From Escherichia coli (GTDB lineage Bacteria; Pseudomonadota; Gammaproteobacteria; Enterobacterales; Enterobacteriaceae): a stretch of 9,233 bases of DNA. The stretch lies in the NCBI RefSeq assembly GCF_003334255.1, contig NZ_QOWU01000090.1; one strand, written 5' to 3'. A program made the position numbers and the translations under genes. The notes under the pieces were generated by a model, which saw nothing but the letters and a program-made list of their open reading frames with translations, was not told where the DNA came from and did not search any database. This document shows, piece after piece, positions 1-9,233 of this stretch. The first letter of the stretch is position 1. Every line of letters starts with the position of its first letter.

Positions 1-76
1 AGTTATCGTGAGAGTAATTCATCGGCACGTTAAATCATATCAGGCGTAATACCACAACCCTTAAGTTAGCGCTTAT

Positions 77-96
77 GGGGGGAAGTCCCCCTTTTT
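77..96 (+). terminator. Rho-independent terminator closing a + strand unit lying left of the window
   Basis: G-run 77..82, loop AAGT, C-run 87..91 (5-bp all-GC stem), followed directly by TTTTT 92..96. Confidence 0.5.
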
Positions 97-106
97 AACG
101 TCATTT

Positions 107-154
107 TATGCAGGGAATGTGTAGTTCTACACAGATTCTATGCAGTATCGGTAT
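107..154. repeat. Compound repeat: TATGCAG (107..113), perfect 16-bp palindrome TGTGTAG-TT-CTACACA (118..133), TATGCAG (139..145), TATCGGTAT (146..154)
   Basis: Read directly from the sequence. Further same-orientation TATGCAG(G) copies at 219..225 and 469..475. A given 7-mer is expected less than once per strand in 9.2 kb. Confidence 0.7.
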
Positions 155-437
155 AGTCCCTTTTTATTCTAACTTATTGAAATATATAAAGAATCTGCAA
201 AGCCTCTTTTCAGGGAGCTATGCAGGGTGTTAGTCGTCCCTCTCCAGACACTACATATAGTGCTATATACAGGGCTATATAACGATATATAGATGTTTGG
301 TCACATGGTGTAACTATCAAGAAACTTAATAGTTTCCTATGTGAAAGTTATTTCTGAGGGTGGGTAAGTGCTCAGGAGATTTCATGAGGATAATTCTTAT
401 CCGAATCATCACGTAGAACACGCTTAAGCACAGATAC

Positions 438-461
438 AAAAAAGCCCCCATGAAGGAGGCT
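438..461 (-). terminator. Rho-independent terminator of the recombinase gene
   Basis: On the - strand: AGCCUCC-UUCAU-GGGGGCU (7 bp including one G.U) followed by UUUUUU (A-run 438..443 on +). The hairpin begins 25 nt after the stop codon at 487..489. Confidence 0.65.
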
Positions 462-486
462 ATGAATCTATGCAGGTGATGAGAAA

Positions 487-1053
487 TTATTCAGCTTTAA
501 TACGCTGTACAGTTGACTTGGCAACGTTGAATTGAGCGGCTACTTTAGCGATTGAACTACCAGCAGCAAGAGCAGCTTTAATACCTTCTCTGTCAACCGC
601 TTTACCGTTACCCCTTCCAACTACACGACCAGCAGCTTTAGCAGCTTCATAACCTTCTCTTTGACGCTCAAGCATCATTTTACGTTCAGCTTCAGCCACT
701 GCTGAAAAGATTGTGAGAATCATCTTAGACGTGGGGTTATCGTCACCAGTTATCAGACCTTCTTTGTGAAAGTGAACCTTGATACCTTTCTGTGAAAGTT
801 TATCCACCAGCGTTAATACATCCACGGTAGAGCGCCCTAAACGTGACAGGTCGTGTACATGGATAGTGTCACCTTCACGAACATAATCGAGCATAGCCTT
901 TAGTTGTGGACGGTCTGTATTCTTCCCAGATGCTTTATCAGTAAATACCTTATCCAGTACGACCCCTTCAAGTTGACGGTCTGTAATCTGCTGGATTGAT
1001 GAAACTCGAACATAACCAATGTTAGCCATAATATACTCATTTGCCTTACTCAT
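487..1053 (-). CDS. Small serine recombinase (resolvase/invertase family)
   Basis: 188-aa ORF. MANIGYVRVSSIQQ matches the catalytic-serine N-terminus of the family (compare Hin MATIGYIRVSTIDQ). Also DRPQL, LSRLGRS, an E-helix AEAERKMMLERQREG, and a C-terminal Gly/Arg arm plus HTH (IAKVAAQFNVAKSTVQRI). The family-typical start is the internal ATG at 1029 (M-A-N-I-G-Y); 1053 is the longest-ORF start. Confidence 0.9.
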   Translation of the reverse strand: MSKANEYIMANIGYVRVSSIQQITDRQLEGVVLDKVFTDKASGKNTDRPQLKAMLDYVREGDTIHVHDLSRLGRSTVDVLTLVDKLSQKGIKVHFHKEGLITGDDNPTSKMILTIFSAVAEAERKMMLERQREGYEAAKAAGRVVGRGNGKAVDREGIKAALAAGSSIAKVAAQFNVAKSTVQRIKAE

Positions 1054-1064
1054 TTGATGGATTG

Positions 1065-1094
1065 AGTATAACGTACCGATAAAGTGTTTTACAA
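1065..1094 (-). promoter_or_regulatory. Candidate sigma70 promoter of the recombinase gene
   Basis: - strand TTGTAA (1094..1089), 18 nt, TATACT (1070..1065). The predicted start near 1058 leaves only about 5 nt before ATG 1053, which favours ATG 1029 as the real start. Confidence 0.35.
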
Positions 1095-1156
1095 GGCTAA
1101 TCGGTATGGTTTTTACAGGGGGTTAGCTATACCTTTTTAGTATGCTATATCGGTAT
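1074..1156. repeat. ATCGGTAT motif cluster upstream of the recombinase gene (candidate res-like binding sites)
   Basis: TACCGATA 1074..1081 (inverted copy), ATCGGTAT 1100..1107, TATCGGTAT 1148..1156. The first two form the dyad TACCGAT-N19-ATCGGTA. A fourth copy lies at 146..154 on the other side of the gene. An 8-mer is expected about 0.3 times in this window. Confidence 0.55.
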
Positions 1157-1339
1157 GCCTAAGAGATGGAGATGCCTTTACAGCAACTCACATAGAAAGT
1201 CAATAGATATTTGGCTTTTTTGCAAAGGGGGTCACATAGCTGGTGTGACGGGTACTTAGCAGGTATAGACCTGTGATAGATATTTTCGAAGATTCGGGGA
1301 AGATGAGATTCAAAGAGGGCTAGTCATTTTTTATAAAAA

Positions 1340-1477
1340 TTTTCAGACTCTGAAAAGTTACTGTACAGATTTTATACAGATATCTTTAAAGTATCTGTAA
1401 AGACTTTTAAGATAAGAGATAGATATCCCAGAAAGGATATCCGTTTAGAAAACCTGTTAAGTATCTCTTAAAAGAGA
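1340..1477. promoter_or_regulatory. Cluster of four unrelated dyad symmetries in the recombinase/methyltransferase divergent intergenic region
   Basis: TTTTCAG-ACT-CTGAAAA 1340..1356; TACAGATA-N9-TATCTGTA 1375..1399; GATATCC-N6-GGATATC 1422..1441; TCTCTT-AA-AAGAGA 1464..1477. All arms are perfect. Confidence 0.5.
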
Positions 1478-1521
1478 GTAAACCTTGTCAATAGTGATTG
1501 CAATAAAAATTTTTATTTCTT

Positions 1522-2184
1522 ATGTCAATTGAGCATATTTTAATCGGGAAACATCATGGGGGTTCTGATTACTGGAGAACTCCATTTCTTATATTCCGCA
1601 ATTTGCACCGTGAGTTTAGTTTCAGTCTGGATGGTGCTGCAACTGAGCATGACACGCTGTTACCACGATTCACCAATGATATTCACAATCAGTCATGGGA
1701 TGGTGAACGGGTGTTCTGTAACCCACCATACAGCGACACTAAAACATTCCTCCTAAAAGCCGCTGAAGCGGATTTAGCGGTATTCCTGATACCGTACCGA
1801 CCCCACACCACATACTGGCTTAAGCACCTCTTCACAAACCCGCTTTGCCATGAAATCCGTATTCTTCATCGTGCAGTTAAATACCTTCCACCAGCAGGGC
1901 ATAACGGGCTTGCTATTAGGTCACCGTTTGCAAGTGCAATTGTCATCTTTAAAACTGAGCCACGCAGACATGAAATTACGCAGATGATTTGCTGTGCTGA
2001 TACATTGCTACCGTTAACCATCATTAACAGAGGAGGCTTAAGAGGAAGACCCACCATTTACCCACCTGAGACGCTCGACAGCTTCATAAAGCTATACAGG
2101 CAAGGAAAACCCATTAAGTGCATTGCAGATGCTCTCAGAATGCCTCTGAGCACGTCATACAGGATTGCGCAAAGGTTGAGCTAA
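1522..2184 (+). CDS. Phage Dam-type DNA N6-adenine methyltransferase with a C-terminal resolvase-type HTH domain
   Basis: 220-aa ORF. DYWRTP...FSLDGAA...W-x3-VFCNPPYSD follows the phage Dam family layout (PF05869-like), with catalytic NPPY at nt 1720..1731. From GRP (nt 2044) the last ~46 aa read as a Hin/resolvase-type DNA-binding domain (GRPTIY...IKCIADALRMPLSTSYRI). There is no SD before ATG 1522, so the start is uncertain. Confidence 0.8.
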   Translation: MSIEHILIGKHHGGSDYWRTPFLIFRNLHREFSFSLDGAATEHDTLLPRFTNDIHNQSWDGERVFCNPPYSDTKTFLLKAAEADLAVFLIPYRPHTTYWLKHLFTNPLCHEIRILHRAVKYLPPAGHNGLAIRSPFASAIVIFKTEPRRHEITQMICCADTLLPLTIINRGGLRGRPTIYPPETLDSFIKLYRQGKPIKCIADALRMPLSTSYRIAQRLS

Positions 2185-2288
2185 AATTCTCATAAATATG
2201 GCCATTTACAAGACAGGTGATTTAGATATTAAGAAGTATCCCTGTGAACAATAAATGACCAATCAGTAATTATTCTGTGAAATAATTG

Positions 2289-2317
2289 TTGCAATCTATA
2301 ATCACACATGATATAGT
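2289..2317 (+). promoter_or_regulatory. Sigma70 promoter of the replication operon
   Basis: TTGCAA (2289..2294), 17 nt, TATAGT (2312..2317). It gives a leader of about 225 nt before the rep-like ATG at 2551. Confidence 0.55.
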
Positions 2318-2378
2318 TTCATAGTGGGCTGATAAAAAAGTTCATGTCTTGAAGTGGTAACACTTGGGGAGGTGTCAG

Positions 2379-2414
2379 ATGATTGACGTCAACAAGACCT
2401 CTCATTCAGGGTAA
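2379..2414 (+). CDS. Possible 11-codon leader peptide (MIDVNKTSHSG) in the rep leader
   Basis: Strong SD GGGGAGG (2366..2372), 6-nt spacer, ATG 2379, stop TAA 2412..2414. No other support. Confidence 0.25.
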   Translation: MIDVNKTSHSG

Positions 2415-2499
2415 TTACCTCAGCGTTTTAATCATCGTACTGTTTCAGGCATGGACTTCTTTATCAGTCCATCAATCCCCCAGATATTTTAATCACACA

Positions 2500-2530
2500 G
2501 GCTAATCGGTTTTATCCGGTTGGCCTTTTC
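2500..2530 (+). terminator. Attenuator-like intrinsic terminator just upstream of the rep RBS
   Basis: GGCTAATCGG (2500..2509), loop TTTTAT, CCGGTTGGCC (2516..2525): 10 bp including two G.U pairs, then TTTT (2526..2529). It ends 7 nt before the SD GAGG 2537..2540. Confidence 0.45.
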
Positions 2531-2550
2531 ACGTATGAGGTAATTTATGA

Positions 2551-3489
2551 ATGTCTAAATATAACCCAAATCAGTTTTATAAATTTGATGTGCGAATCTC
2601 TCAGCTTTCAGAAGAAATTAACGCAGCAGCAAGATTAATTTATATGGTCATGGTTCATAGCTGTGATTTCTATGAAGAGAAGTACAAAGCATATTCACCA
2701 AGTATTGACCATCTAGCTTATATGGCTGGTGTTTCAAAGAGAACGGCAATCAGAGCTATTGAGACACTTGAGAAACACGGTTTAATTCAGGTGCAAAAGA
2801 ATCAGGGTCGTCAAAGCACTTATCGTGTATTCACACTGGATGATAAGCCGGAATTACTTGTAAGACCTACATCACAGGAAGTTGCAGCCTCAGTAAGACA
2901 AAATGACACCACTACCAGTGACAAAATGTCATCAGTACCAGTGACAAAATGTCATGGGGGTAGTGACAAAATGTCACCCGTGTTAGATAAGTTATTAGAT
3001 AAAACATTAGATAATAATATTATAGATAAGAGTAAAGATACTGAACTTGATGTTGGTATCAATGAAGATGATTTTCTTTCTTTGGATGAATTAAATGATT
3101 TTCTCTCTATGAATGAATCTGACCTTGATAGTGAAGCTACTAAAGAGACCTCTAAAACATCTGACTTAGAGGAAGATAAAATCTCTGATGTGAATGAAGT
3201 TAGTGACCAGCAAGATACACCTTGCCGCCTCGAATCAACTGATGATGAATTACCGGATGTTGACCTTGATGATGAAGAAGACCCTGAAGAGGAATTGAAA
3301 CGTGAACAGCGTAAAGCAGAAATTAAAGAAAGATTCAGAAAGGCAAAGCTAAAGAACAGGATTGATGAACTTGATGACTTTGATGATAGTGACGATGATT
3401 TTACTTTTACACCAAAAAAGAAAACTCACACCGAGCCAAAGAAAGAAAAAGTTAAAGTCAGACGTGTTTATGCTGGAGGAATGTTTTAA
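2551..3489 (+). CDS. Replication-initiator-like protein: N-terminal winged-HTH (HTH_36-like) and a long acidic C-terminal half
   Basis: 312-aa ORF. ARLIYMVMVHSCD...YSPSIDHLAYMAGVSKRTAIRAIETLEKHGLIQV...STYRV is the HTH pattern seen in phage/plasmid initiators. Iterons and an AT-rich tract lie inside the gene (2892..3029). SD GAGG lies 10 nt upstream. The gene is translationally coupled to the next ORF. Confidence 0.7.
   Translation: MSKYNPNQFYKFDVRISQLSEEINAAARLIYMVMVHSCDFYEEKYKAYSPSIDHLAYMAGVSKRTAIRAIETLEKHGLIQVQKNQGRQSTYRVFTLDDKPELLVRPTSQEVAASVRQNDTTTSDKMSSVPVTKCHGGSDKMSPVLDKLLDKTLDNNIIDKSKDTELDVGINEDDFLSLDELNDFLSMNESDLDSEATKETSKTSDLEEDKISDVNEVSDQQDTPCRLESTDDELPDVDLDDEEDPEEELKREQRKAEIKERFRKAKLKNRIDELDDFDDSDDDFTFTPKKKTHTEPKKEKVKVRRVYAGGMF
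2892..2976. repeat. Four phased iterons (candidate origin of replication inside the rep gene)
   Basis: AGTGACAAAATGTCA at 2917..2931, 2940..2954 and 2962..2976. Copies 1 and 2 are identical over 20 bp (TACCAGTGACAAAATGTCAT). A degenerate copy AGTAAGACAAAATGACA lies at 2892..2908. Spacing is 23/23/22 bp. Each copy contains the dyad TGACA-AAA-TGTCA. Confidence 0.75.
2983..3029. repeat. AT-rich tract with 12-bp-phased TTAGATAA repeats (candidate DNA-unwinding element)
   Basis: TTAGATAA at 2983..2990, 2995..3002 and 3007..3014, plus ATAGATAA at 3022..3029. It lies immediately 3' of the iterons and is encoded as LDKLLDKTLDNNIIDK. Confidence 0.55.
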
Positions 3490-3779
3490 TGAAAGAATAT
3501 AACGGTGAAAAACGATACAAAGATTATCTATTAAGGCGCTACAGCATTTCTCGTGAAGGTCATCTTCTGAAAGATACTCATGGGGAGGTTTACCGGATTC
3601 GACCGAAGAAGGAAGGAAAGAATTATTTCTTTTTTGATGGTGTGACAGATTTAAAGATTGACGCTTTGAGGTTTGCAGTGATGTATCATTTTGATGTCTG
3701 GGATTCAGTCCACCAGCTACGATTAAAAGACGGTGACCCCGGTAATCTGAAGGCCACCAATATCATCACAAAACGTTAG
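3489..3779 (+). CDS. Hypothetical 96-aa protein, weak resemblance to HNH_3/NUMOD4-type phage endonuclease scaffolds
   Basis: ATG overlaps the rep stop (TAATG). YSISREGHLLKD...GKNYFFFDG...H-x4-KDGDPGNLKATN loosely follows the Y-x-V-S-x-x-G ... H-x-DGD-x-x-N-x-x-x-NL pattern, but the key Asn/His positions look degenerate. Confidence 0.5.
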   Translation: MKEYNGEKRYKDYLLRRYSISREGHLLKDTHGEVYRIRPKKEGKNYFFFDGVTDLKIDALRFAVMYHFDVWDSVHQLRLKDGDPGNLKATNIITKR

Positions 3780-3961
3780 TTTGTTTTACCATCATCAATC
3801 GTAATTGTGATTTCATATTTGAAAAGCTTAATGCTGAAATTGAATCGTGTACTTTTGGCGATAATCATTTTTAAAAGCTGATACACCAGAAGCACCAGAA
3901 ACACAAAGCAACCTAAGCTTGCGAATCTGTGAGATTCAGCAATTGTTTCAAGAAAGCCCAT
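3776..3961 (-). CDS. Small single-pass membrane protein (61 aa)
   Basis: Good SD AAGGGG 5 nt before the ATG (3961..3959). Hydrophobic segment LGCFVFLVLLVYQLL. It has its own promoter (4012..4040). It converges on, and overlaps by 4 nt, the 3489..3779 gene. Confidence 0.5.
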   Translation of the reverse strand: MGFLETIAESHRFASLGCFVFLVLLVYQLLKMIIAKSTRFNFSIKLFKYEITITIDDGKTN

Positions 3962-4011
3962 TAATTCCCCTTATTTATCAAAGGGAATGACCTGTATCAG
4001 CCCCTATAACC

Positions 4012-4040
4012 ATAATATCATGTAAATGAGATGTTGACAA
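4012..4040 (-). promoter_or_regulatory. Sigma70 promoter for the 61-aa membrane protein
   Basis: - strand TTGTCA (4040..4035), 17 nt, TATTAT (4017..4012). Its -35 overlaps the -35 of the divergent + promoter. Confidence 0.55.
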
Positions 4041-4062
4041 TATGTTAAATAAATGTTAAGAT
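4034..4062 (+). promoter_or_regulatory. Near-consensus sigma70 promoter of the 4099..5374 operon
   Basis: TTGACA (4034..4039), 17 nt, TAAGAT (4057..4062). It is overlaid by three tandem 11-bp repeats: ATGTTGACAAT, ATGTTAAATAA, ATGTTAAGATT (4031..4063). Confidence 0.65.
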
Positions 4063-4098
4063 TGTAGTATGAGTAAGAGATTTAAGGAGATTTTTACA

Positions 4099-4389
4099 AT
4101 GACTCACACAGTTACGCGCCTTTTGCCAGAGGCATTTGAACGACTGGCAGCAATCAAAGCCAAATATCCCGATATGAAGCACACAGCGCTTGTTGCAGAG
4201 GTTTTAAAAGAGCCGGTAGACTTGACCCCTTTCGATAACGTTAAGGGCGTTGCAGAGGGTTCTAAGGCCATCAGAATCACAACGGGCCAACTGGAACTAC
4301 TCAAAGCACAGTCCGCAGTAGCAGGTTGCTCAATGATTCAGGTCTTAAGCGCAAAGGTTCATCAATTAGCGGATAAGCTGGGGGTTTAA
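4099..4389 (+). CDS. Small DNA-binding-like protein with two tandem ribbon-helix-helix-like segments
   Basis: SD AAGGAG (4083..4088), 10 nt, ATG 4099. The ORF track starts at ATG 4069, which coincides with the predicted transcription start. TVTRLLPEAFERLAAIKAKYPDMKHTALVAEVL and AIRITTGQLELLKAQSAVAGCSMIQVLSAKV each fit a strand-helix-helix pattern. This was judged by eye only. Confidence 0.6.
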   Translation: MTHTVTRLLPEAFERLAAIKAKYPDMKHTALVAEVLKEPVDLTPFDNVKGVAEGSKAIRITTGQLELLKAQSAVAGCSMIQVLSAKVHQLADKLGV

Positions 4390-4814
4390 TGCTATGTACA
4401 TTTGATTATCATGCGTTTTATCGACATAGAGGTCATCTTGTCCGTGAGAATAACGGAACATGGAAAGATTTAACTCGTAATGCTGAACCCTTCACACACC
4501 AGCAATTAAAATCCCGCTTCTCCAGATGGAAGAATGCACCAGCAGATACTGGTGATTTTGAGATTATCCATACCTTCGATTATGCCTCAGAAGATGACCT
4601 TCACGATGCAATTAAGCTGATTGAAGACTTCAATACCTCAGAAAATGTGGATGGTGACAAATATAAATCCCGTGGTAACCGCTATAACCGTGATGATATC
4701 ACTCAGGCCATAAATGCTGGTCAATCTCAGCGATACATTACAGAAAAATATGGTATTTCACGGAGACAGTATTTCTACGTTAAATCATTGATTAATAAAG
4801 ACAATTCAAAATAA
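4389..4814 (+). CDS. Hypothetical 141-aa protein with a C-terminal resolvase-type HTH
   Basis: ATG overlaps the upstream stop (TAATG). The C-terminus DDITQAINAGQSQRYITEKYGISRRQYFYV resembles HTH_7. The N-terminal ~100 aa are unrecognised. Confidence 0.6.
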   Translation: MLCTFDYHAFYRHRGHLVRENNGTWKDLTRNAEPFTHQQLKSRFSRWKNAPADTGDFEIIHTFDYASEDDLHDAIKLIEDFNTSENVDGDKYKSRGNRYNRDDITQAINAGQSQRYITEKYGISRRQYFYVKSLINKDNSK

Positions 4815-4820
4815 CCATCT

Positions 4821-4920
4821 CAGTAACGGTAGAATGCACTTTACAGGCAGAGTTGCACCTTAATTTGATAAATTACCTTACCAGCCAGTGCAACTCCCTC
4901 TGTAACCCGCATGGTTACTG
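4821..4920. other. 100-nt imperfect long hairpin / cruciform-capable element
   Basis: Nested arms: CAGTAAC 4821..4827 / GTTACTG 4914..4920; ATGC 4834..4837 / GCAT 4909..4912; TTACAG 4841..4846 / CTGTAA 4900..4905; GAGTTGCAC 4850..4858 / GTGCAACTC 4888..4896. That is 26 bp in total, with a 29-nt AT-rich apical loop. Confidence 0.6.
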
Positions 4921-4973
4921 GCCTCAGAATGGCTATTTTAAGAGGTCTGAGATGTGTTTTAGAGGAATTTAAA

Positions 4974-5297
4974 ATGAGCAATTACGAATTACAGATTTTC
5001 GTTGATAACGACACCGCTATGATGATTCAGGCTTTCAGTGATTCCGGTGTATCAATTGATTTTGACAGGCTGTTAAAGCTGATGGCTGATAATGCAGAAA
5101 ACATCTCTGACTTTATTCAGTCGGTGGAGTTTAACGAGCCTCGAATGATGCTACCAATTACCGACTCAAACATGAAAAGATTGGTTATCGAGCAAACGAA
5201 CAAACACAGTATTTCCCCAGAGCAATTTTTGAAAGGTGCTGTGACAATCCTGCACAGCGATAATATTCTGGTGACGGATTCTATGAGGGTTCACTAA
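4974..5297 (+). CDS. Hypothetical 107-aa protein
   Basis: SD GAGGA (4963..4967), 6 nt, ATG 4974. The longer ORF start at 4911 lies inside the hairpin element and has no RBS. The C-terminal MLPITDSNMKRLVIEQTNKHSISPEQFLKGAV is weakly RHH-like. Confidence 0.6.
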   Translation: MSNYELQIFVDNDTAMMIQAFSDSGVSIDFDRLLKLMADNAENISDFIQSVEFNEPRMMLPITDSNMKRLVIEQTNKHSISPEQFLKGAVTILHSDNILVTDSMRVH

Positions 5298-5374
5298 TGG
5301 GATTGATAATTGCTTGGACAGCTTTAGGTTTATTTGTTGGTTGCTGGGTGGGCAACACAGTAAATAAGAATTGA
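5297..5374 (+). CDS. Possible 25-aa hydrophobic peptide (MGLIIAWTALGLFVGCWVGNTVNKN)
   Basis: ATG overlaps the stop of the preceding gene (TAATG, the same coupling as two other junctions in this window). One clean transmembrane-length hydrophobic stretch with a basic/polar tail. It is too short for statistical support. Confidence 0.3.
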   Translation: MGLIIAWTALGLFVGCWVGNTVNKN

Positions 5375-5406
5375 TGTTACCAATCTGTTAAAAAGCTGTT
5401 GACAAA
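5374..5406. promoter_or_regulatory. Three tandem 11-bp TGTT repeats ending on the -35 box
   Basis: ATGTTACCAAT 5374..5384, CTGTTAAAAAG 5385..5395, CTGTTGACAAA 5396..5406. The same unit and phase occur at 4031..4063. Confidence 0.55.
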
Positions 5407-5427
5407 TAACCTTAAGCATGGCATAAT
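5399..5427 (+). promoter_or_regulatory. Near-consensus sigma70 promoter with no adjacent conventional gene
   Basis: TTGACA (5399..5404), 17 nt, CATAAT (5422..5427). A second -10-like TATATA follows at 5430..5435. Confidence 0.65.
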
Positions 5428-5433
5428 TGTATA

Positions 5434-5652
5434 TATGAGGATAGTCTTCTATCCGAAGTCTATAGGAAGAGCAATTTTTCCTAAAATCATATTTTCAATA
5501 ATCCGATGGATGGATATTCTGAGTTGGAAAGGTGCAATGCTTTTCGTCATGGCCTTTCAGTTTAGTCTGAGAGGTCATCTCAAAAAGTGCTTAATCATTC
5601 ATTATTGAACCCTTACAGCTTTGCCCTAACTCATGATTAGGGCGTTTTCTTT
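5434..5652 (+). ncRNA. Candidate ~0.2-kb structured short transcript (promoter to first terminator); alternative reading is a leaderless 57-codon ORF at 5435..5608
   Basis: It is bounded by the promoter above and terminator T1. Hairpins: GGATAG-TCTT-CTATCC 5439..5454; TAGGAA-N9-TTCCTA 5463..5483; GAAAGG/CCTTTC 5527..5558; TGAGA-GGTCA-TCTCA 5568..5582. No SD-preceded ORF is present. An ATG at 5435 sits at the predicted +1 and opens MRIVFYPKSIGRAIFPK... (rich in ATA/AGA codons). Confidence 0.35.
5623..5652 (+). terminator. Intrinsic terminator T1
   Basis: GCCCTAA (5623..5629), 7-nt loop, TTAGGGC (5637..5643), then GTTTTCTTT. Confidence 0.65.
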
Positions 5653-5721
5653 AAGAGTTTTGAAACAGAGCTTTTAAAGAAAGTTTTCCTGAAACTTCGT
5701 TAACGTTATAAGCAAACCTTC

Positions 5722-5757
5722 AAAGCCCTTCACAGATTATGTTTAGGGCTTTTCTTA
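5722..5757 (+). terminator. Intrinsic terminator T2 (3' half nearly duplicates T1)
   Basis: AAAGCCCT (5722..5729), 15-nt loop, AGGGCTTT (5745..5752), within the T-rich run TTTTCTT (5750..5756). Confidence 0.55.
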
Positions 5758-5842
5758 ATAGAGCATCTTTAATAAATCGTTAAGTCATCTTCTAAGTGTA
5801 TTGGCGTTGAAGGTGCTCTATTAAGAAATAACCACACTTAGA
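5754..5842 (+). promoter_or_regulatory. Leader with two interleaved inverted repeats reaching the RBS of the 5854 gene
   Basis: CTTAATAGAGCA 5754..5765 / TGCTCTATTAAG 5814..5825 (12 bp perfect). TCTAAGTGT 5791..5799 / ACACTTAGA 5834..5842 (9 bp perfect); its 3' arm overlaps the start of the SD GAGGA 5841..5845. Confidence 0.45.
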
Positions 5843-5853
5843 GGAAAAAAATA

Positions 5854-6564
5854 ATGACAAACGATATTTACATTAATGGCAAAGTGATTGATAGCTTCGG
5901 TGACTGGTCACCACAGACTGAACATCCAGCTATCGCTATTCAGCGCAAAGAGCACGATGCGAGAATTGCACTTGAGCAATCGCTAAAGATGACACCAAAG
6001 GAAATTACCTTTGTGGCTCCTGAACCTCAAGAGATGCCCGATATTGGCAAAACTGAAGCATTATTTAATCTTGAGCGCGAATATTACCCACAGTTAAAAG
6101 AACAGCGCCTTAGATTAGATGACGCTTACAGCAAAGTTACCTTGATGCAATCAGCTATTGAGCCGTCAGAATTTGAGATTCAGGATGAATTGTCACAGAA
6201 ACCATTTGTCTATTACCAATACGAAGACAATGATGGTTTTGGTACTTTTCCAGAAAACATCACAGGCGTGATTAGTAGTCTTCCTGATGGATATCGAATT
6301 GTGAAGATGGTTAAAGCTTCAAGAGGTGCTGGTCAGTTTATTTACATGACCAATAAGAGCGATGAAGAACTCCGTGAAATTGCCAGACAGAACATCTTGG
6401 CATCACGTAACAAGCAACTTGAAAATGTTAAGTTGTATCTCTCAAGAGAGCTTCAGGCTATGAAAGAGCTTGTTAGTGAATATGAGTCGCAGAAGAAGAT
6501 TGCTATGCAAGCCGATATTGAGCAGCTTACGAAGATTTCTCAGAAGTATAGCAAAGCGATTTAA
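5854..6564 (+). CDS. Hypothetical 236-aa protein with a coiled-coil-like C-terminus
   Basis: SD GAGGA followed by an 8-nt spacer before the ATG. Long ORF with even, gene-like composition. The C-terminal ~70 aa are K/E/Q/L-rich (NKQLENVKLYLSRELQAMKELVSEYESQKKIAMQADIEQL). No family was recognised. Confidence 0.7.
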   Translation: MTNDIYINGKVIDSFGDWSPQTEHPAIAIQRKEHDARIALEQSLKMTPKEITFVAPEPQEMPDIGKTEALFNLEREYYPQLKEQRLRLDDAYSKVTLMQSAIEPSEFEIQDELSQKPFVYYQYEDNDGFGTFPENITGVISSLPDGYRIVKMVKASRGAGQFIYMTNKSDEELREIARQNILASRNKQLENVKLYLSRELQAMKELVSEYESQKKIAMQADIEQLTKISQKYSKAI

Positions 6565-6580
6565 TTTAAGTGAGGTGAGA

Positions 6581-6796
6581 ATGATTGATTTGCAACAGCG
6601 TTATGAAACTATTAAGTCGGCTTGTGAAAACTTAAAGTTACAAACCAAGCCAGCCTTAAGAATTAAAACCAAACATCAAATTATCACCTCACACAAACCA
6701 AAAACACGCAAGATTCCAAAGTGGTGTATTGACCGTATTCCTTCTGATGCTCAAATCATAGGTGAAACGGAATTACATTATCTTGTCCGACATTAA
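6581..6796 (+). CDS. Hypothetical 71-aa basic protein
   Basis: SD GAGGTGAG directly upstream of ATG 6581. The ORF track extends to 6470, but that extension overlaps the previous gene and lacks an RBS. Confidence 0.5.
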   Translation: MIDLQQRYETIKSACENLKLQTKPALRIKTKHQIITSHKPKTRKIPKWCIDRIPSDAQIIGETELHYLVRH

Positions 6797-6823
6797 AAAA
6801 GAATTGGTTGGGTAAAAATCAAC

Positions 6824-6866
6824 GGGAGAGATTATCGAGTGATATCGGTAGTTTCTCCCTTTTTTG
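6824..6866 (+). terminator. Intrinsic terminator after the 5854..6796 gene pair
   Basis: GGGAGA (6824..6829) pairs with TCTCCC (6854..6859). A short inner CGA/TCG pairing is possible. A TTTTTT run follows at 6860..6865. Confidence 0.5.
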
Positions 6867-6872
6867 TATGTG

Positions 6873-6915
6873 TGCTACGTGAAATCTTCTGAACAGATAT
6901 ACCCACCAAAAATTA
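6873..6915 (+). repeat. 43-bp direct repeat, copy A (promoter-like module upstream of the tape-measure gene)
   Basis: TGCTACGTGAAATCTTCTGAACAGATATACCCACCAAAAATTA. It is 36/43 identical to copy B at 9112..9154, and 25/27 over the first 27 nt. It contains TGAACA-17-TTATTT. GCTACGT 6874..6880 is inverted at ACGTAGC 6922..6928. Confidence 0.7.
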
Positions 6916-6956
6916 TTTTTTACGTAGCTCACGCTTAAAGAGGTGAAAAAATATGA

Positions 6957-9023
6957 ATGGCACAATTTAAAGTTGATGATTTTCTGATTGAGCTAGGTTT
7001 TAACTCTCAGAGGGTTTTAAAAGGTCTGGAAAAAGCCGAGAAACAAACGATGCAGGTAGCATCACGAATTGAGAAGCGATTGAATAAAGCTTTTAAAGTT
7101 AACCCTACGCCTTTAAATGATTCTCTCAAGGTCATGGAAAGAAATGTCGATAAAACTGTTTCCAAGATTGAGCAGCGTCTTAAAAACACTAAAGCGTTTA
7201 AGATTAAAACGGAAATTGAGGATACTTTAAAGCCACTTAGACAACCGAGACAGCCACGAATTAGCGGAAGCAGAGCAATTACAGCAGCGCATAGCGTGAA
7301 TATGAGCAAGCTTCGTGACTTTAATCCTATGCTTGAGAAGTATTTTAAAAGCCAGTATTACAGCTTAAGCAGTAAATCCAAGACACTTGGAAACGAAGCT
7401 TTTAATCGTGAGTTAGCAAAATTAAATCAATCTCTTCGTGAAACACTTTCTAAGTTTAACAAGACCACCAGCAAAAATAATCACAGTGAAAATGCTTCGA
7501 ATGGTCTGGATGTATTAGCTACGAGTGCAATCAAAGCAGGTACAGCCATTTATAGTTTTCAGACAGCCTTAGAAGCTTACAGGCGGATTATGGAGGTTGG
7601 TCTGAAAAAAGAAGCATCACAACGAGCGGCACAATTCGTTTTAGGTGATGAAGGTGCTAAACGAGCTACAGAATTTGTTAAGAATCTTGCTGATAGTAGT
7701 GGTGTAGACCAGATTGAAACATTAAGCAGTTTTGCTAAGTTTTCCGCTGGTGCTGGTGATATGAATGCAGACCAGAAAGAATCCTTATTTTCTAATGTGA
7801 TTGGTACATCCAGATTAATGGGGCTAAGCACCGATGAAATTAACGGGATTTTAAAAGCTTTCGAGCAGATGGCATCTAAAGGAAAGATTCAGGCTGAAGA
7901 GCTACGCGGTCAATTAGGTGACAGAATGGCAGGTGCTTTTCAGTTATTTGCCAGAAGTCTTGGGATGACTACGGAAGAATTAGACAAGGCTATGAAAGAC
8001 GGTAAGGTTCTTTCTAAAGATGTTCTCCCTAAAGTATCCGCTGAAATGGGAAAGATGATTGATAAAGCGGGAGGATGGGAAAAGATTATTAACTCTACTC
8101 AGACGCAGTTAGGCCGCTTAAGTAATTCATGGAATAATAATTTGGCCTTAATGTTCGATGGTTCACAGGAAGGTTTAACAGACTTTACAAGGTCACTGAC
8201 TAATTTACTTAATTCACTGGGTGGTCAATCTAAAAATCTTGGTGAACATTTTGGCGACTTGATGAAAAGCATGTCAAACGGTATTGATGATTTAACCACG
8301 ATTAGCTACCGAGTGCAGGGATTCTTTGACAGAGTGACCCTTGCTTACAGAGAATTAAATGACACTCAAAAAGCTGTAGCTGATGGTATCGCAAATGGCC
8401 TGTTAAGTGCATTAAAGGGACTTGCTGGTATTGTCGCTGTAAGGTCTGGTATTGGTGCTGTAGGTGGTATCTGGAACTTAATTAGGGCTATTTCCACGCT
8501 TGGGAATGTAGCAAATACAGCAGCAGGAAGAATTAATTCACGTTCTGGTGGTGTTGAAAGTGGAAAAAGTAGGCTATCTGTAGCTGATGCAATTACCAGA
8601 GTAATGATTGTCGGTATGACAACTGATGTGATTAATGCCATTGTCAAACCGTTCTATGAACGTCAGATGAGTAAGTCAGATAATCCGATTGATAAAGTTG
8701 TAAGGTCAAAGGTGGAACCCACAGACCAGGCATTAACTGGTGACATGAACTCTTTAGCCGCTGTTTTATGGGCTATGGTTCATGGCAAATCAAAAGATGT
8801 TCCACAGTTTTCACCTGAAGCATTAAATAATCTAAAAGGTCGAGTGGAAACATTCACACAAGATTTAAAGGTTATCAAGCCGTCAGTAAATATTCAGCCT
8901 CAGACAATCAATATCACAACTCAGACGGTACTTGATGGAAAGGTTATTGATGAAAGAACCACATCGCATATTAATCGTATGCAGGAAGATACCTTGATTA
9001 GCTCAGCTTACCCAGAGGAATAA
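6957..9023 (+). CDS. Phage tail length tape-measure protein
   Basis: 688-aa ORF. The core ...LMGLSTDEINGILKAFEQMASKGKIQAEELRGQLGDRMAGAFQLFARSLGMTTEELDKAMKDGKVLSKDVLPKV... is the conserved tape-measure block (TIGR02675-like). The N-terminal third is K/E-rich and helical. Gly/Ala/Ile-rich hydrophobic segments (GIANGLLSALKGLAGIVAVRSGIGAVGGIW) are typical of the family. SD GAGGTG lies at 6940..6945. Confidence 0.88.
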   Translation: MAQFKVDDFLIELGFNSQRVLKGLEKAEKQTMQVASRIEKRLNKAFKVNPTPLNDSLKVMERNVDKTVSKIEQRLKNTKAFKIKTEIEDTLKPLRQPRQPRISGSRAITAAHSVNMSKLRDFNPMLEKYFKSQYYSLSSKSKTLGNEAFNRELAKLNQSLRETLSKFNKTTSKNNHSENASNGLDVLATSAIKAGTAIYSFQTALEAYRRIMEVGLKKEASQRAAQFVLGDEGAKRATEFVKNLADSSGVDQIETLSSFAKFSAGAGDMNADQKESLFSNVIGTSRLMGLSTDEINGILKAFEQMASKGKIQAEELRGQLGDRMAGAFQLFARSLGMTTEELDKAMKDGKVLSKDVLPKVSAEMGKMIDKAGGWEKIINSTQTQLGRLSNSWNNNLALMFDGSQEGLTDFTRSLTNLLNSLGGQSKNLGEHFGDLMKSMSNGIDDLTTISYRVQGFFDRVTLAYRELNDTQKAVADGIANGLLSALKGLAGIVAVRSGIGAVGGIWNLIRAISTLGNVANTAAGRINSRSGGVESGKSRLSVADAITRVMIVGMTTDVINAIVKPFYERQMSKSDNPIDKVVRSKVEPTDQALTGDMNSLAAVLWAMVHGKSKDVPQFSPEALNNLKGRVETFTQDLKVIKPSVNIQPQTINITTQTVLDGKVIDERTTSHINRMQEDTLISSAYPEE

Positions 9024-9111
9024 ACAATGTTAGAGCTACTAATATTTATTGCCACACATGGCAATCTATTAATCTTTATCTAGTATGACGATTCAACTAT
9101 GAATAGTCGAA

Positions 9112-9154
9112 TGCTACGTGATTTCTTCTGAACAGATACCAACATCAAAAATTA
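9112..9154 (+). repeat. 43-bp direct repeat, copy B
   Basis: TGCTACGTGATTTCTTCTGAACAGATACCAACATCAAAAATTA. It is followed after 2 bp by the IS end. Confidence 0.7.
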
Positions 9155-9156
9155 GA

Positions 9157-9233
9157 TGAACCGCCCCGGGTTTCCTGGAGAGTGTTTTATCTGTGAACTC
9201 AGGCTGCCAGATCATTGTTTCCGATGGAAGCAT
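9157..9233 (-). mobile_element. Right end (IRR plus end of orfB) of an IS629/IS1203-like IS3-family insertion sequence, continuing beyond the window
   Basis: From 9157 the sequence reads TGAACCGCCCCGGGTTTCCTGGAGAGTGTTTTATCTGTGAACTCAGGCTGCCAGATCATTGTTTCCGATGGAAGCAT. From memory this is the reverse complement of the IS629-type right end (TG...CA termini, IR TGAACCGCCCCGGG). G+C jumps abruptly relative to the flanking DNA. Confidence 0.85.
9199..9233 (-). CDS. IS3-family transposase OrfB, C-terminal fragment (truncated by the window edge)
   Basis: The reverse-strand frame reads ...ASIGNNDLAA then stop (tca 9199..9201 on +), matching my recollection of the IS629 OrfB C-terminus (...YYASIGNDDLAA). 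Confidence 0.7.
   Translation of the reverse strand, partial: ASIGNNDLAA

Follow-up and report, generated by a model that had tools for sequence, protein, structure and literature searches.

A putative replication origin inside the initiator gene of a GATC-free chromosomal island of Escherichia coli

The 9,233-nt stretch of Escherichia coli DNA analyzed here (contig NZ_QOWU01000090.1; hereafter the window) contains a gene for a 312-amino-acid (aa) protein that databases annotate only as 'helix-turn-helix domain-containing protein', and in the middle of this gene lies a string of short palindromic repeats joined to an AT-rich tract. The locus raises the question of whether these repeats are kept for the peptide that they encode or for a function of the DNA itself and, if the latter, which one. 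We conclude that positions 2896-3036 are most probably an initiator-bound vegetative replication origin, situated inside its own initiator gene and belonging to an island of ~11.7 kb.

The array (2896-2976) consists of three perfect copies of TGACAAAATGTCA and one degenerate copy, at spacings of 23, 23 and 22 bp, and its 13-bp core is a dyad, TGACA-AAA-TGTCA. The degenerate copy, AGACAAAATGACA, differs from the core at two positions and lies 23 bp upstream of the next copy, and the last of the iterons forms with its flanks a 15-bp palindrome, GTGACAAAATGTCAC. Exact copies of AGTGACAAAATGTCA start at 2917, 2940 and 2962 (23 and 22 bp from start to start); none occurs in any of 200 dinucleotide-preserving shuffles, against the three observed. 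Six nucleotides beyond the last iteron begins a tract in which TTAGATAA recurs with a 12-bp phase at 2983, 2995 and 3007, followed 15 bp further by ATAGATAA at 3022, and in which TAGATAA stands at 2984, 2996, 3008 and 3023. This tract holds the window minimum of GC content (14% in the 50-mer from 2987) and also the least stable duplex among all 9233 bases, the 41-mer from 2988 (-37.6 kcal/mol; mean -51.5, standard deviation 3.3), which is more than 4 standard deviations below the window mean. Most of the other AT-rich minima of the window fall between genes or at their boundaries; this one is deep inside a gene, the iterons occupying codons 116-142 and the AT tract codons 145-162 of the 312. 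A repeated site at helical-turn spacing with an AT-rich tract adjoining it is the anatomy of an iteron-type theta origin. The original prediction, made from the letters alone, had described three perfect copies and a degenerate one at 22-23 bp, each with its dyad, and an AT-rich stretch with 12-bp-phased repeats right after them; both descriptions are confirmed within the open reading frame (ORF) at 2551-3489, whose translation also gives the peptide that had been read across iterons and AT tract, ...RQNDTTTSDKMSSVPVTKCHGGSDKMSPVLDKLLDKTLDNNIIDK... Elsewhere in the window, an iteron-like site with two mismatches (4035-4047) overlaps a promoter-like -35 hexamer, such matches being at chance expectation, and a scan of 2150-4100 for promoters and terminators stayed at chance level, with one promoter-like match falling in the AT tract.

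The reading frame shows what the repeat is conserved for. Because the unit measures 22-23 bp, successive copies fall in different frames, and the four copies of the window, read in order as RQNDT, SDKMS, VTKCH and SDKMS, use all three. One of the three frames of TGACAAAATGTCA opens with the stop codon TGA, and it is in this frame that the degenerate copy sits, reading AGA; its two changes are the first T of TGA and one base of an arm. We extended the comparison to nine intact initiator genes that carry this iteron, namely that of the window and those of eight viral or prophage loci (IMG/VR contigs L017, L019, L020, L021, L022 and L028, the Coprobacillaceae prophage L003 and its IMG/VR counterpart L023). 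In the two stop-free frames, 31 of the 36 copies are perfect and encode VTKCH or DKMS. In the stop frame none of five copies is perfect, and four of them have A, C or G in place of the first T of TGA; the remaining copy, in L022, has three mismatches and retains this T. Random decay does not account for the degenerate copy of the window, which is altered where a perfect copy would open with a stop. This pattern across genes indicates that the repeat is selected as a DNA element, and the copies in three frames together with the avoidance of the stop codon bear out the earlier suggestion that the function of the DNA dictates the protein sequence and not the reverse. Changes in the number of units are also on record. 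The allele of strain 00-3076 (L005, 1095-1251) has seven iterons, and its gain of three 23-bp units produces exactly the annotated internal stops; that of strain 2013C-4830 (L032, 1045-1105) has lost one unit, is annotated as frameshifted and retains three iterons, the last with its centre flipped to TGACATTTTGTCA. Annotation treats the two genes as pseudogenes.

Alleles of the gene within E. coli show that the array does not evolve independently of the protein that would bind it. There are at least three allele classes, whose N-terminal domains are 37-38% identical between class A, to which the window belongs, and classes B and C. In every class the gene carries, at the equivalent position, a four-copy array peculiar to that class, with 22-23 bp spacing and an internal dyad, and downstream of it an AT tract that is likewise its own; the iteron is TGACAAAATGTCA in class A, AACCAGAATTTGGTT in class B and ACTCAGTCAGTCAA or CCCACTGAGTCAA in class C. 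Nucleotide homology between A and B ends at 2553, in the start codon, and restarts at 3054, and that between A and C ends at 2388 and restarts at 3057. The exchanged unit is therefore the DNA-binding domain with its iterons and AT tract, ~500 bp in all. The class A cassette is found in 77 of 5426 complete E. coli genomes, and 120 cluster representatives of this class hardly differ from one another in aa 1-150 but vary in the C-terminal half. These comparisons indicate that the iterons co-vary with the DNA-binding domain. At the level of residues, the pattern R-x-x-(I/V/M)-R is present in the recognition helix (predicted at about aa 61-75, including R64 and R68 of the window protein) of all seven aligned proteins whose genes carry TGACAAAATGTCA, and four relatives with other iterons each lack at least one of the two arginines. 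Overall, class A resembles classes B and C more closely than it does the phage proteins (31-34% identity), so that the arginine pattern runs against overall similarity and is informative for that reason.

The same iteron recurs beyond E. coli. Window 2941-2979 is identical at 38 of 39 positions to a Coprobacillaceae-type phage contig, although the DNA-binding domains of the two share only 23% identity as protein and 56% as DNA; tblastn alignments of aa 29-143 give 31-34% identity to the Coprobacillaceae prophage and its IMG/VR counterpart. Both of these encode an HTH_36 protein from a gene with the same iterons and the same GGGGGTA spacer, and in L003 and L004 the iterons are followed by a 12-bp-phased ATAGATAATAAT tract similar to that of the window. 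In the Coprobacillaceae-type phage a DnaB-like helicase gene lies directly downstream of the initiator. Homologues that keep the iteron DNA while the encoded linker diverges had been put forward as a sign of an origin, and this is what we find, the linker being read in different frames. A scan of IMG/VR for two iterons 6-10 bp apart returned 12 stretches, of which eight lie in a gene of the helix-turn-helix initiator type, mostly directly after the helix-turn-helix region, and four are intergenic. The only phage match in a blastn search with the origin was Agrobacterium phage JP1, which has three iterons at 22 bp in an intergenic region ~1.1 kb from a DnaB-like helicase gene. In all, intergenic arrays of TGACAAAATGTCA were seen in several viral contigs (L027, 167-330; L024/L026; L018; L031, 1497-1553), and the in-gene position is therefore common in this iteron family without being obligatory. 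Bacteroides phage B40-8 and Bajarodcaudo virus 2 have related N-terminal domains and, at a position equal to that in the window, arrays of different dyad iterons (GGTGAAAATCACC and GTGAACAAAGTTCAC) followed by AATATAGATA-type tracts. A tblastn search with the phage N-terminal domain for plasmid initiators of the pPR9 type returned three unrelated plasmids only.

What kind of protein would bind such an array? Pfam assigns HTH_36 (PF13730) to aa 22-79 of the 312-aa protein (E 6e-7), with otherwise weak helix-turn-helix families, and PHROG matches over aa 3-190 carry the names 'replication initiation protein', 'replication initiation O-like' and 'DnaD-like helicase loader' (E 2e-10 to 2e-9), the best 'replication initiation O-like' match standing at 1.6e-9 and others being weaker. 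A sequence search of the PDB gave nothing but spurious acetate-kinase matches and weak MarR ones, so that a fold search was needed. The AlphaFold2 model, built on an alignment of 13 sequences, contains a confident winged helix at about aa 10-123 (predicted local distance difference test, pLDDT, 80-95 for aa 10-120). With this domain, Foldseek retrieved 4RO3 as the best PDB match, then 4PQL, 5KBJ, 4PT7 and 4PTA, at target-normalised template modeling scores of 0.53-0.68. The first of these entries, 4RO3, shows the N-terminal part of the initiator RepA from PLE, a phage satellite of Vibrio cholerae; RepA_N plasmid initiators from Staphylococcus aureus are represented by 4PT7 and 4PTA (PMC7145576). 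RepA of pSK41 and pTZ2162 is among the best folds retrieved, and 4PQL and 5KBJ are RepA_N initiators as well. For predicted viral structures, the highest-ranking named matches are 'replication initiator protein' and 'replication protein O', the latter from phage Min27 in BFVD at E 9e-5, consistent with a relation to lambda O that is distant only. By sequence and by predicted fold, the protein is best placed among the iteron-binding initiators. It had no tblastn match at E 1e-5 in 50,697 phage and 72,556 plasmid records.

Beyond the winged helix the model is of low confidence. Residues 126-173, which the iterons and the AT tract encode, have pLDDT below 50 and are predicted to form a disordered linker, and most of aa 126-312 is below 50 as well, apart from short helices at 178-186 and 245-268. 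The original prediction had placed the origin between an N-terminal helix-turn-helix domain and an acidic C-terminal half; the linker position stands, but the C-terminal half is predicted to be disordered and is not a folded domain. This half is common to all three allele classes in mosaic form and includes the motifs DDFLSLDELNDFLS and DDFDDSDDDF, which are only suggestive as recruiters. Within it we noted a conserved acidic motif, DELDDFDDSDDDFTF (window 3360-3400, aa 271-285), and a duplicated amphipathic motif, DDFLSLDELNDFLSMNES (window 3063-3120, aa 172-190). Most of the alleles examined from classes A, B and C retain the two motifs, DDFLSLDELNDFLSMNES being absent or altered in a few, such as L014, L015 and P0122. 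DDFDDSDDDF, like DELDDFDDSDDDFTF, is similar to the acidic tip at the C-terminus of E. coli SSB, and it is possible that DELDDFDDSDDDFTF and DDFLSLDELNDFLSMNES are short replisome-recruiting motifs. Wherever the downstream region is intact, the loci examined all have the 96-aa ORF in this place after the initiator. The ORF has no Pfam, PHROG or PADLOC match; it may encode a partner protein, as a functional counterpart of a helicase-loading partner. The features of the locus are collected in Table 1.

Table 1. Coordinates of the putative origin, its initiator gene and the adjoining ORF (window positions)
Feature	Position	Strand	Basis or remark
Initiator gene, 312 aa	2551..3489	+	ORF; HTH_36 PF13730; PHROG replication-initiator families
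Coding region of N-terminal winged-helix DNA-binding domain, aa 1 to ~125	2551..2925	+	AlphaFold2, Foldseek
Exchangeable specificity cassette (N-terminal domain, iterons, AT tract)	2553..3053	+	Homology breaks against classes B and C
Iteron 0, degenerate, AGACAAAATGACA	2896..2908	+	Frame 0; read as RQND (RQNDT with next residue)
Iteron 1, perfect, TGACAAAATGTCA	2919..2931	+	Read as SDKMS
Iteron 2, perfect, TGACAAAATGTCA	2942..2954	+	Read as VTKCH
Iteron 3, perfect, TGACAAAATGTCA	2964..2976	+	Read as SDKMS
AT-rich tract, proposed DNA unwinding element	2983..3036	.	54 bp; lowest GC, least stable duplex
Coding region of acidic, mostly disordered C-terminal half	3054..3486	+	Alignment; AlphaFold2 pLDDT
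96-aa ORF, ATG overlapping the initiator stop (TAATG)	3489..3779	+	ORF list

The array belongs to a small mobile island. The interior of the window matches, at ~80-95% identity and in fragments that cover as much as 77% of the query, a chromosomal island in 569 of 5426 complete E. coli genomes (~10%). In strain EC20017429 (L001) the island is complete, measures ~11.7 kb and lies between yciI and tonB, with genes for a small serine recombinase, a Dam-family methyltransferase (PF05869), the initiator, the 96-aa ORF, several small ORFs, a tape-measure protein, a Dit-like tail protein and a large serine recombinase (LSR) in an order that is constant in hundreds of genomes. The LSR of L001 has 506 aa (PF00239, PF07508, PF13408), the tape-measure protein matches PF20155 and phrog_4036 (E 4e-93) and the Dit-like distal tail protein PF21821 (window 6957-9023; L001 29021-31344); Pfam and PHROG found no capsid or terminase gene in L001. 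The ends of the window (1-79 and 9146-9233) match insertion sequences (IS; records annotated IS421 and IS3-family/IS629) that occur in thousands of plasmids and in Stx phages, and the Dit and integrase end is absent from this copy, which is probably truncated unless the contig broke at the IS elements. The initiator cassette is not the only part of the island to be replaced. A block with a small serine recombinase or DNA invertase (350-1206; ORF 487-1053, minus strand) has no DNA homology to L001 20420-20971, where the gene is on the opposite strand, and a second block without homology to L001 spans 5737-6599 (ORF 5854-6564), which brings the replaceable modules of the island to at least three.

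The island also has a distinctive composition. GATC does not occur in window 80-9145, against 41 sites expected from a second-order Markov model and 34 ± 5 in shuffles of the whole window, and the sole GATC, at 9210, is inside the terminal IS fragment. L001 likewise has none over 11.6 kb (19811-31400), compared with 3.3-4.4 per kb in the flanking chromosome. CTAG is scarce in the window interior (4 versus 15 expected). GATC avoidance is known in T7-like coliphages, which the pattern of the island resembles, and the absence of the site could reflect burst replication that outruns Dam/MutH or evasion of a GATC-specific nuclease. PADLOC recognized no defence genes, its one match being 'orphan methyltransferase' for the Dam-family gene. 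The GC content of the island is 39% and that of the flanking E. coli chromosome 47-51%, which fits acquisition from a lower-GC source.

From this anatomy we propose the following mechanism. Dimers of the N-terminal winged helix (aa 1 to ~125) would bind the four palindromic iterons TGACA-AAA-TGTCA, which, since a spacing of 22-23 bp amounts to about two helical turns, are all turned to the same side of the double helix and which each have an A-tract at their centre. The resulting nucleoprotein complex would distort the DNA and open the adjoining 54-bp TTAGATAA tract, and the acidic C-terminal half, perhaps with the translationally coupled 96-aa protein, would then recruit helicase and primase, which the island does not encode and which would therefore be supplied by the host or a helper phage. 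We propose this sequence of events because the anatomy matches that of ori lambda, SPP1 oriL, pSK41 and the RepA_N iterons. Its weakest step is replisome recruitment, there being no P-like or DnaC-like gene and the C-terminal half being predicted disordered.

Several observations weigh against an origin. The support is computational, and binding, melting, replisome recruitment and replication of the island are inferred. Pfam gives the 312-aa protein HTH_36 and no match to Phage_rep_O or RepA_N (PF06970), the fold search gives only modest E-values (1e-4 to 1e-6), and winged-helix regulators, of the MarR type and others, are interleaved with the initiator folds or stand just behind them in Foldseek. 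The co-variation of arginines and iterons comes from few sequences that are phylogenetically non-independent. No DnaA box is present in the window. Some alleles are pseudogenes (L005, L012 and L032). The window copy, bounded by IS elements and without the integrase end, may therefore be immobile now. Pfam, PHROG and PADLOC found no helicase, primase or recognisable helicase loader in the island, and autonomous replication therefore cannot be assumed; the RepA of PLE is insufficient for replication without its helper phage (PMC7145576).

One alternative is that the array is a former origin in a decaying prophage remnant, now functionless and regular only through recent ancestry. IS elements cut the window copy at both ends, several alleles have been pseudogenised by changes in repeat-unit number, and the island has no capsid, terminase or replisome genes. 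As an account of the family, however, decay is improbable: three cassettes each keep four phased iterons together with an open reading frame, aa 1-150 are nearly invariant among the class A representatives while the C-terminal half varies, and the constant gene order in hundreds of genomes and the absence of GATC over 11.6 kb point to continuing selection. The IS-bounded copy in the window could itself be a dead remnant.

A living array might still serve regulation, as a set of operator or copy-control sites for autorepression, attenuation or self-titration, with replication starting elsewhere. The winged helix is also found in regulators of the MarR and GntR types, autoregulation is common among initiators, and no helicase or primase genes stand alongside. 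The normal place of an operator is a promoter, however, whereas this array lies ~350 nt inside a gene, and it is always joined to an extreme AT tract with which it is swapped as one. The best sequence and fold matches of the protein are moreover initiators, and its phage homologues sit in replication modules beside DnaB-like helicase genes. We therefore regard an exclusively regulatory array as distinctly unlikely, while a secondary regulatory role might exist alongside an origin.

Repeats bound by a helix-turn-helix protein could alternatively mark a packaging (pac) or a partition (centromere-like) site. Some phages have pac sites with repeats inside the small-terminase gene, centromeres are iterated binding sites, and a satellite needs a packaging signal. 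Yet the protein matches initiator families and not TerS, ParB or ParG, no terminase or ParA-type ATPase is encoded nearby, the adjoining tract is of the unwinding type that characterizes origins, and the fold matches RepA-type initiators, all of which makes this assignment very improbable. Scarcely credible, finally, is the view that the unit repeats for the sake of the protein, in a flexible linker, or serves phase variation as a hypermutable variable-number tandem repeat, with the DNA regularity as a by-product: unit number does vary between strains (seven, four or three copies), but the frame analysis rejects a peptide repeat, since a 22-23 bp unit is not a multiple of three and yields unrelated peptides in its different frames, the changes in the frame-0 copy go just far enough to escape a stop, and changes in unit number destroy the gene instead of toggling it cleanly.

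An origin inside the initiator gene is thus the preferred reading. L001 combines an LSR and its own initiator with no capsid or replisome matches, which is PLE-like gene content, and a recent report describes satellites of Mycobacteriaceae that encode both a serine integrase and a tape-measure protein (PMC12822802). Matches of the tape-measure protein in IMG/VR were considered as evidence of packaging and set aside, being by their identifiers mostly isolate genomes, taken as predicted prophage regions. A full-text literature search found no description of the iteron string or of the island, which may be an undescribed E. coli satellite. More tentatively, and with some doubt on our part, the origin could belong to a whole family of undescribed PLE-like E. 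coli satellites (~11.7 kb, low in GC, GATC-free, with an LSR, a RepA_N-like initiator whose gene contains the origin, and their own tape-measure and distal-tail proteins), in which the three interchangeable cassettes and the 13-bp iteron held in common with Firmicutes, Agrobacterium and other phages would reflect an arms race over replication specificity among satellites, helpers and competitors. If the island is a satellite, its origin gives a handle for detecting induction and for finding the helper.

The layout itself is textbook, known from lambda and from staphylococcal plasmids. As far as we searched, what is new is the assignment of an origin and initiator to this island, the three specificity cassettes, the stop-avoidance signature, and the occurrence of one 13-bp iteron across initiator genes of E. 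coli, Coprobacillaceae-type and other uncultured phages as well as in the intergenic array of JP1. The assignment proposes a function for a protein labelled 'helix-turn-helix domain-containing' or 'hypothetical' in thousands of enterobacterial records, and it marks a probable origin for an island present in about one in ten complete E. coli genomes. The locus is also a case of overlapping codes in which array and reading frame limit one another down to single bases, as where the frame-0 iteron yields exactly the T that would make a stop. Three natural cassettes with two co-varying arginines provide a natural test of initiator-iteron specificity, and the peptide signature VTKCH, DKMS or RQN can serve as a marker of in-gene origins in phage genomes of several phyla.

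How the locus compares with known systems depends on which of its parts is considered. The original prediction had likened it to the ori/O architecture of lambda, where gene O contains four 18-bp iterons, separated by short spacers, and next to them a 38-bp AT-rich sequence (PMC3349717). The likeness holds insofar as the origin lies inside the initiator ORF, with four dyad iterons on short spacers and then an AT-rich tract of ~40-50 bp between the N-terminal DNA-binding part and the C-terminus of the initiator (PMC3349717), and insofar as origin and N-terminal specificity vary together, as in lambdoid relatives. It fails in that the similarity to O is confined to PHROG 'O-like' families and fold, with no Pfam Phage_rep_O match, that the iteron sequence is unrelated, and that no gene for a P-like helicase loader follows the initiator. 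In SPP1 oriL, repeated boxes and an unwinding element are embedded in gene 38 (PMC5737612), so that initiator-binding boxes and an AT-rich element lie inside the gene of an initiator that, like ours, has no AAA+ domain (PMC5737612); in contrast to the island, G38P belongs to family pfam09524, and SPP1 has its own helicase G40P and loader G39P.

PLE is nearer. The N-terminal domain of its RepA is the best match among solved structures, and the two elements share the form of a chromosomal island with an LSR integrase and an initiator without helicase or primase activity, as well as iterons made of inverted sub-repeats around a poly-A tract. They differ in that the PLE origin is non-coding whereas that of the E. 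coli island is inside a gene, and the islands have no detectable sequence homology. Inverted sub-repeats converging on a poly-A tract have been described for RepA_N iterons (PMC7145576), and the dyad TGACA-AAA-TGTCA in four mid-gene copies agrees with descriptions of that family (PMC7145576, PMC5703833), as does the RepA_N/DnaD N-terminal domain fold, solved RepA_N structures being among the best fold matches. Relative to pSK41, the island protein has no Pfam RepA_N match, a Gram-negative host and an integrated island in place of a plasmid, a disordered, acidic C-terminal half in place of a folded primase-interacting domain, and no antisense-RNA control that we identified. In its plan, however, it follows the pSK41 type closely. 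Rep of pSK41 has 319 aa, its 120-aa N-terminal domain binds four Rep boxes located centrally in rep, and the linker encoded by the origin is dispensable (PMC5703833); the island protein has 312 aa, a winged-helix N-terminal domain of ~120 aa, four mid-gene boxes and an origin-encoded linker. In pPR9 a block of ~500 bp comprising the N-terminal domain and the origin has been replaced by one with a PF13730 helix-turn-helix domain, and the rep region replicates autonomously (PMC5703833); the E. coli cassettes likewise exchange N-terminal domain and origin as a block of ~500 bp, with PF13730 as the N-terminal family in both. In architecture and fold, the closest counterparts of the island initiator are thus the RepA_N/PF13730 initiators of pSK41, pPR9 and PLE and not lambda O, to which it is analogous.

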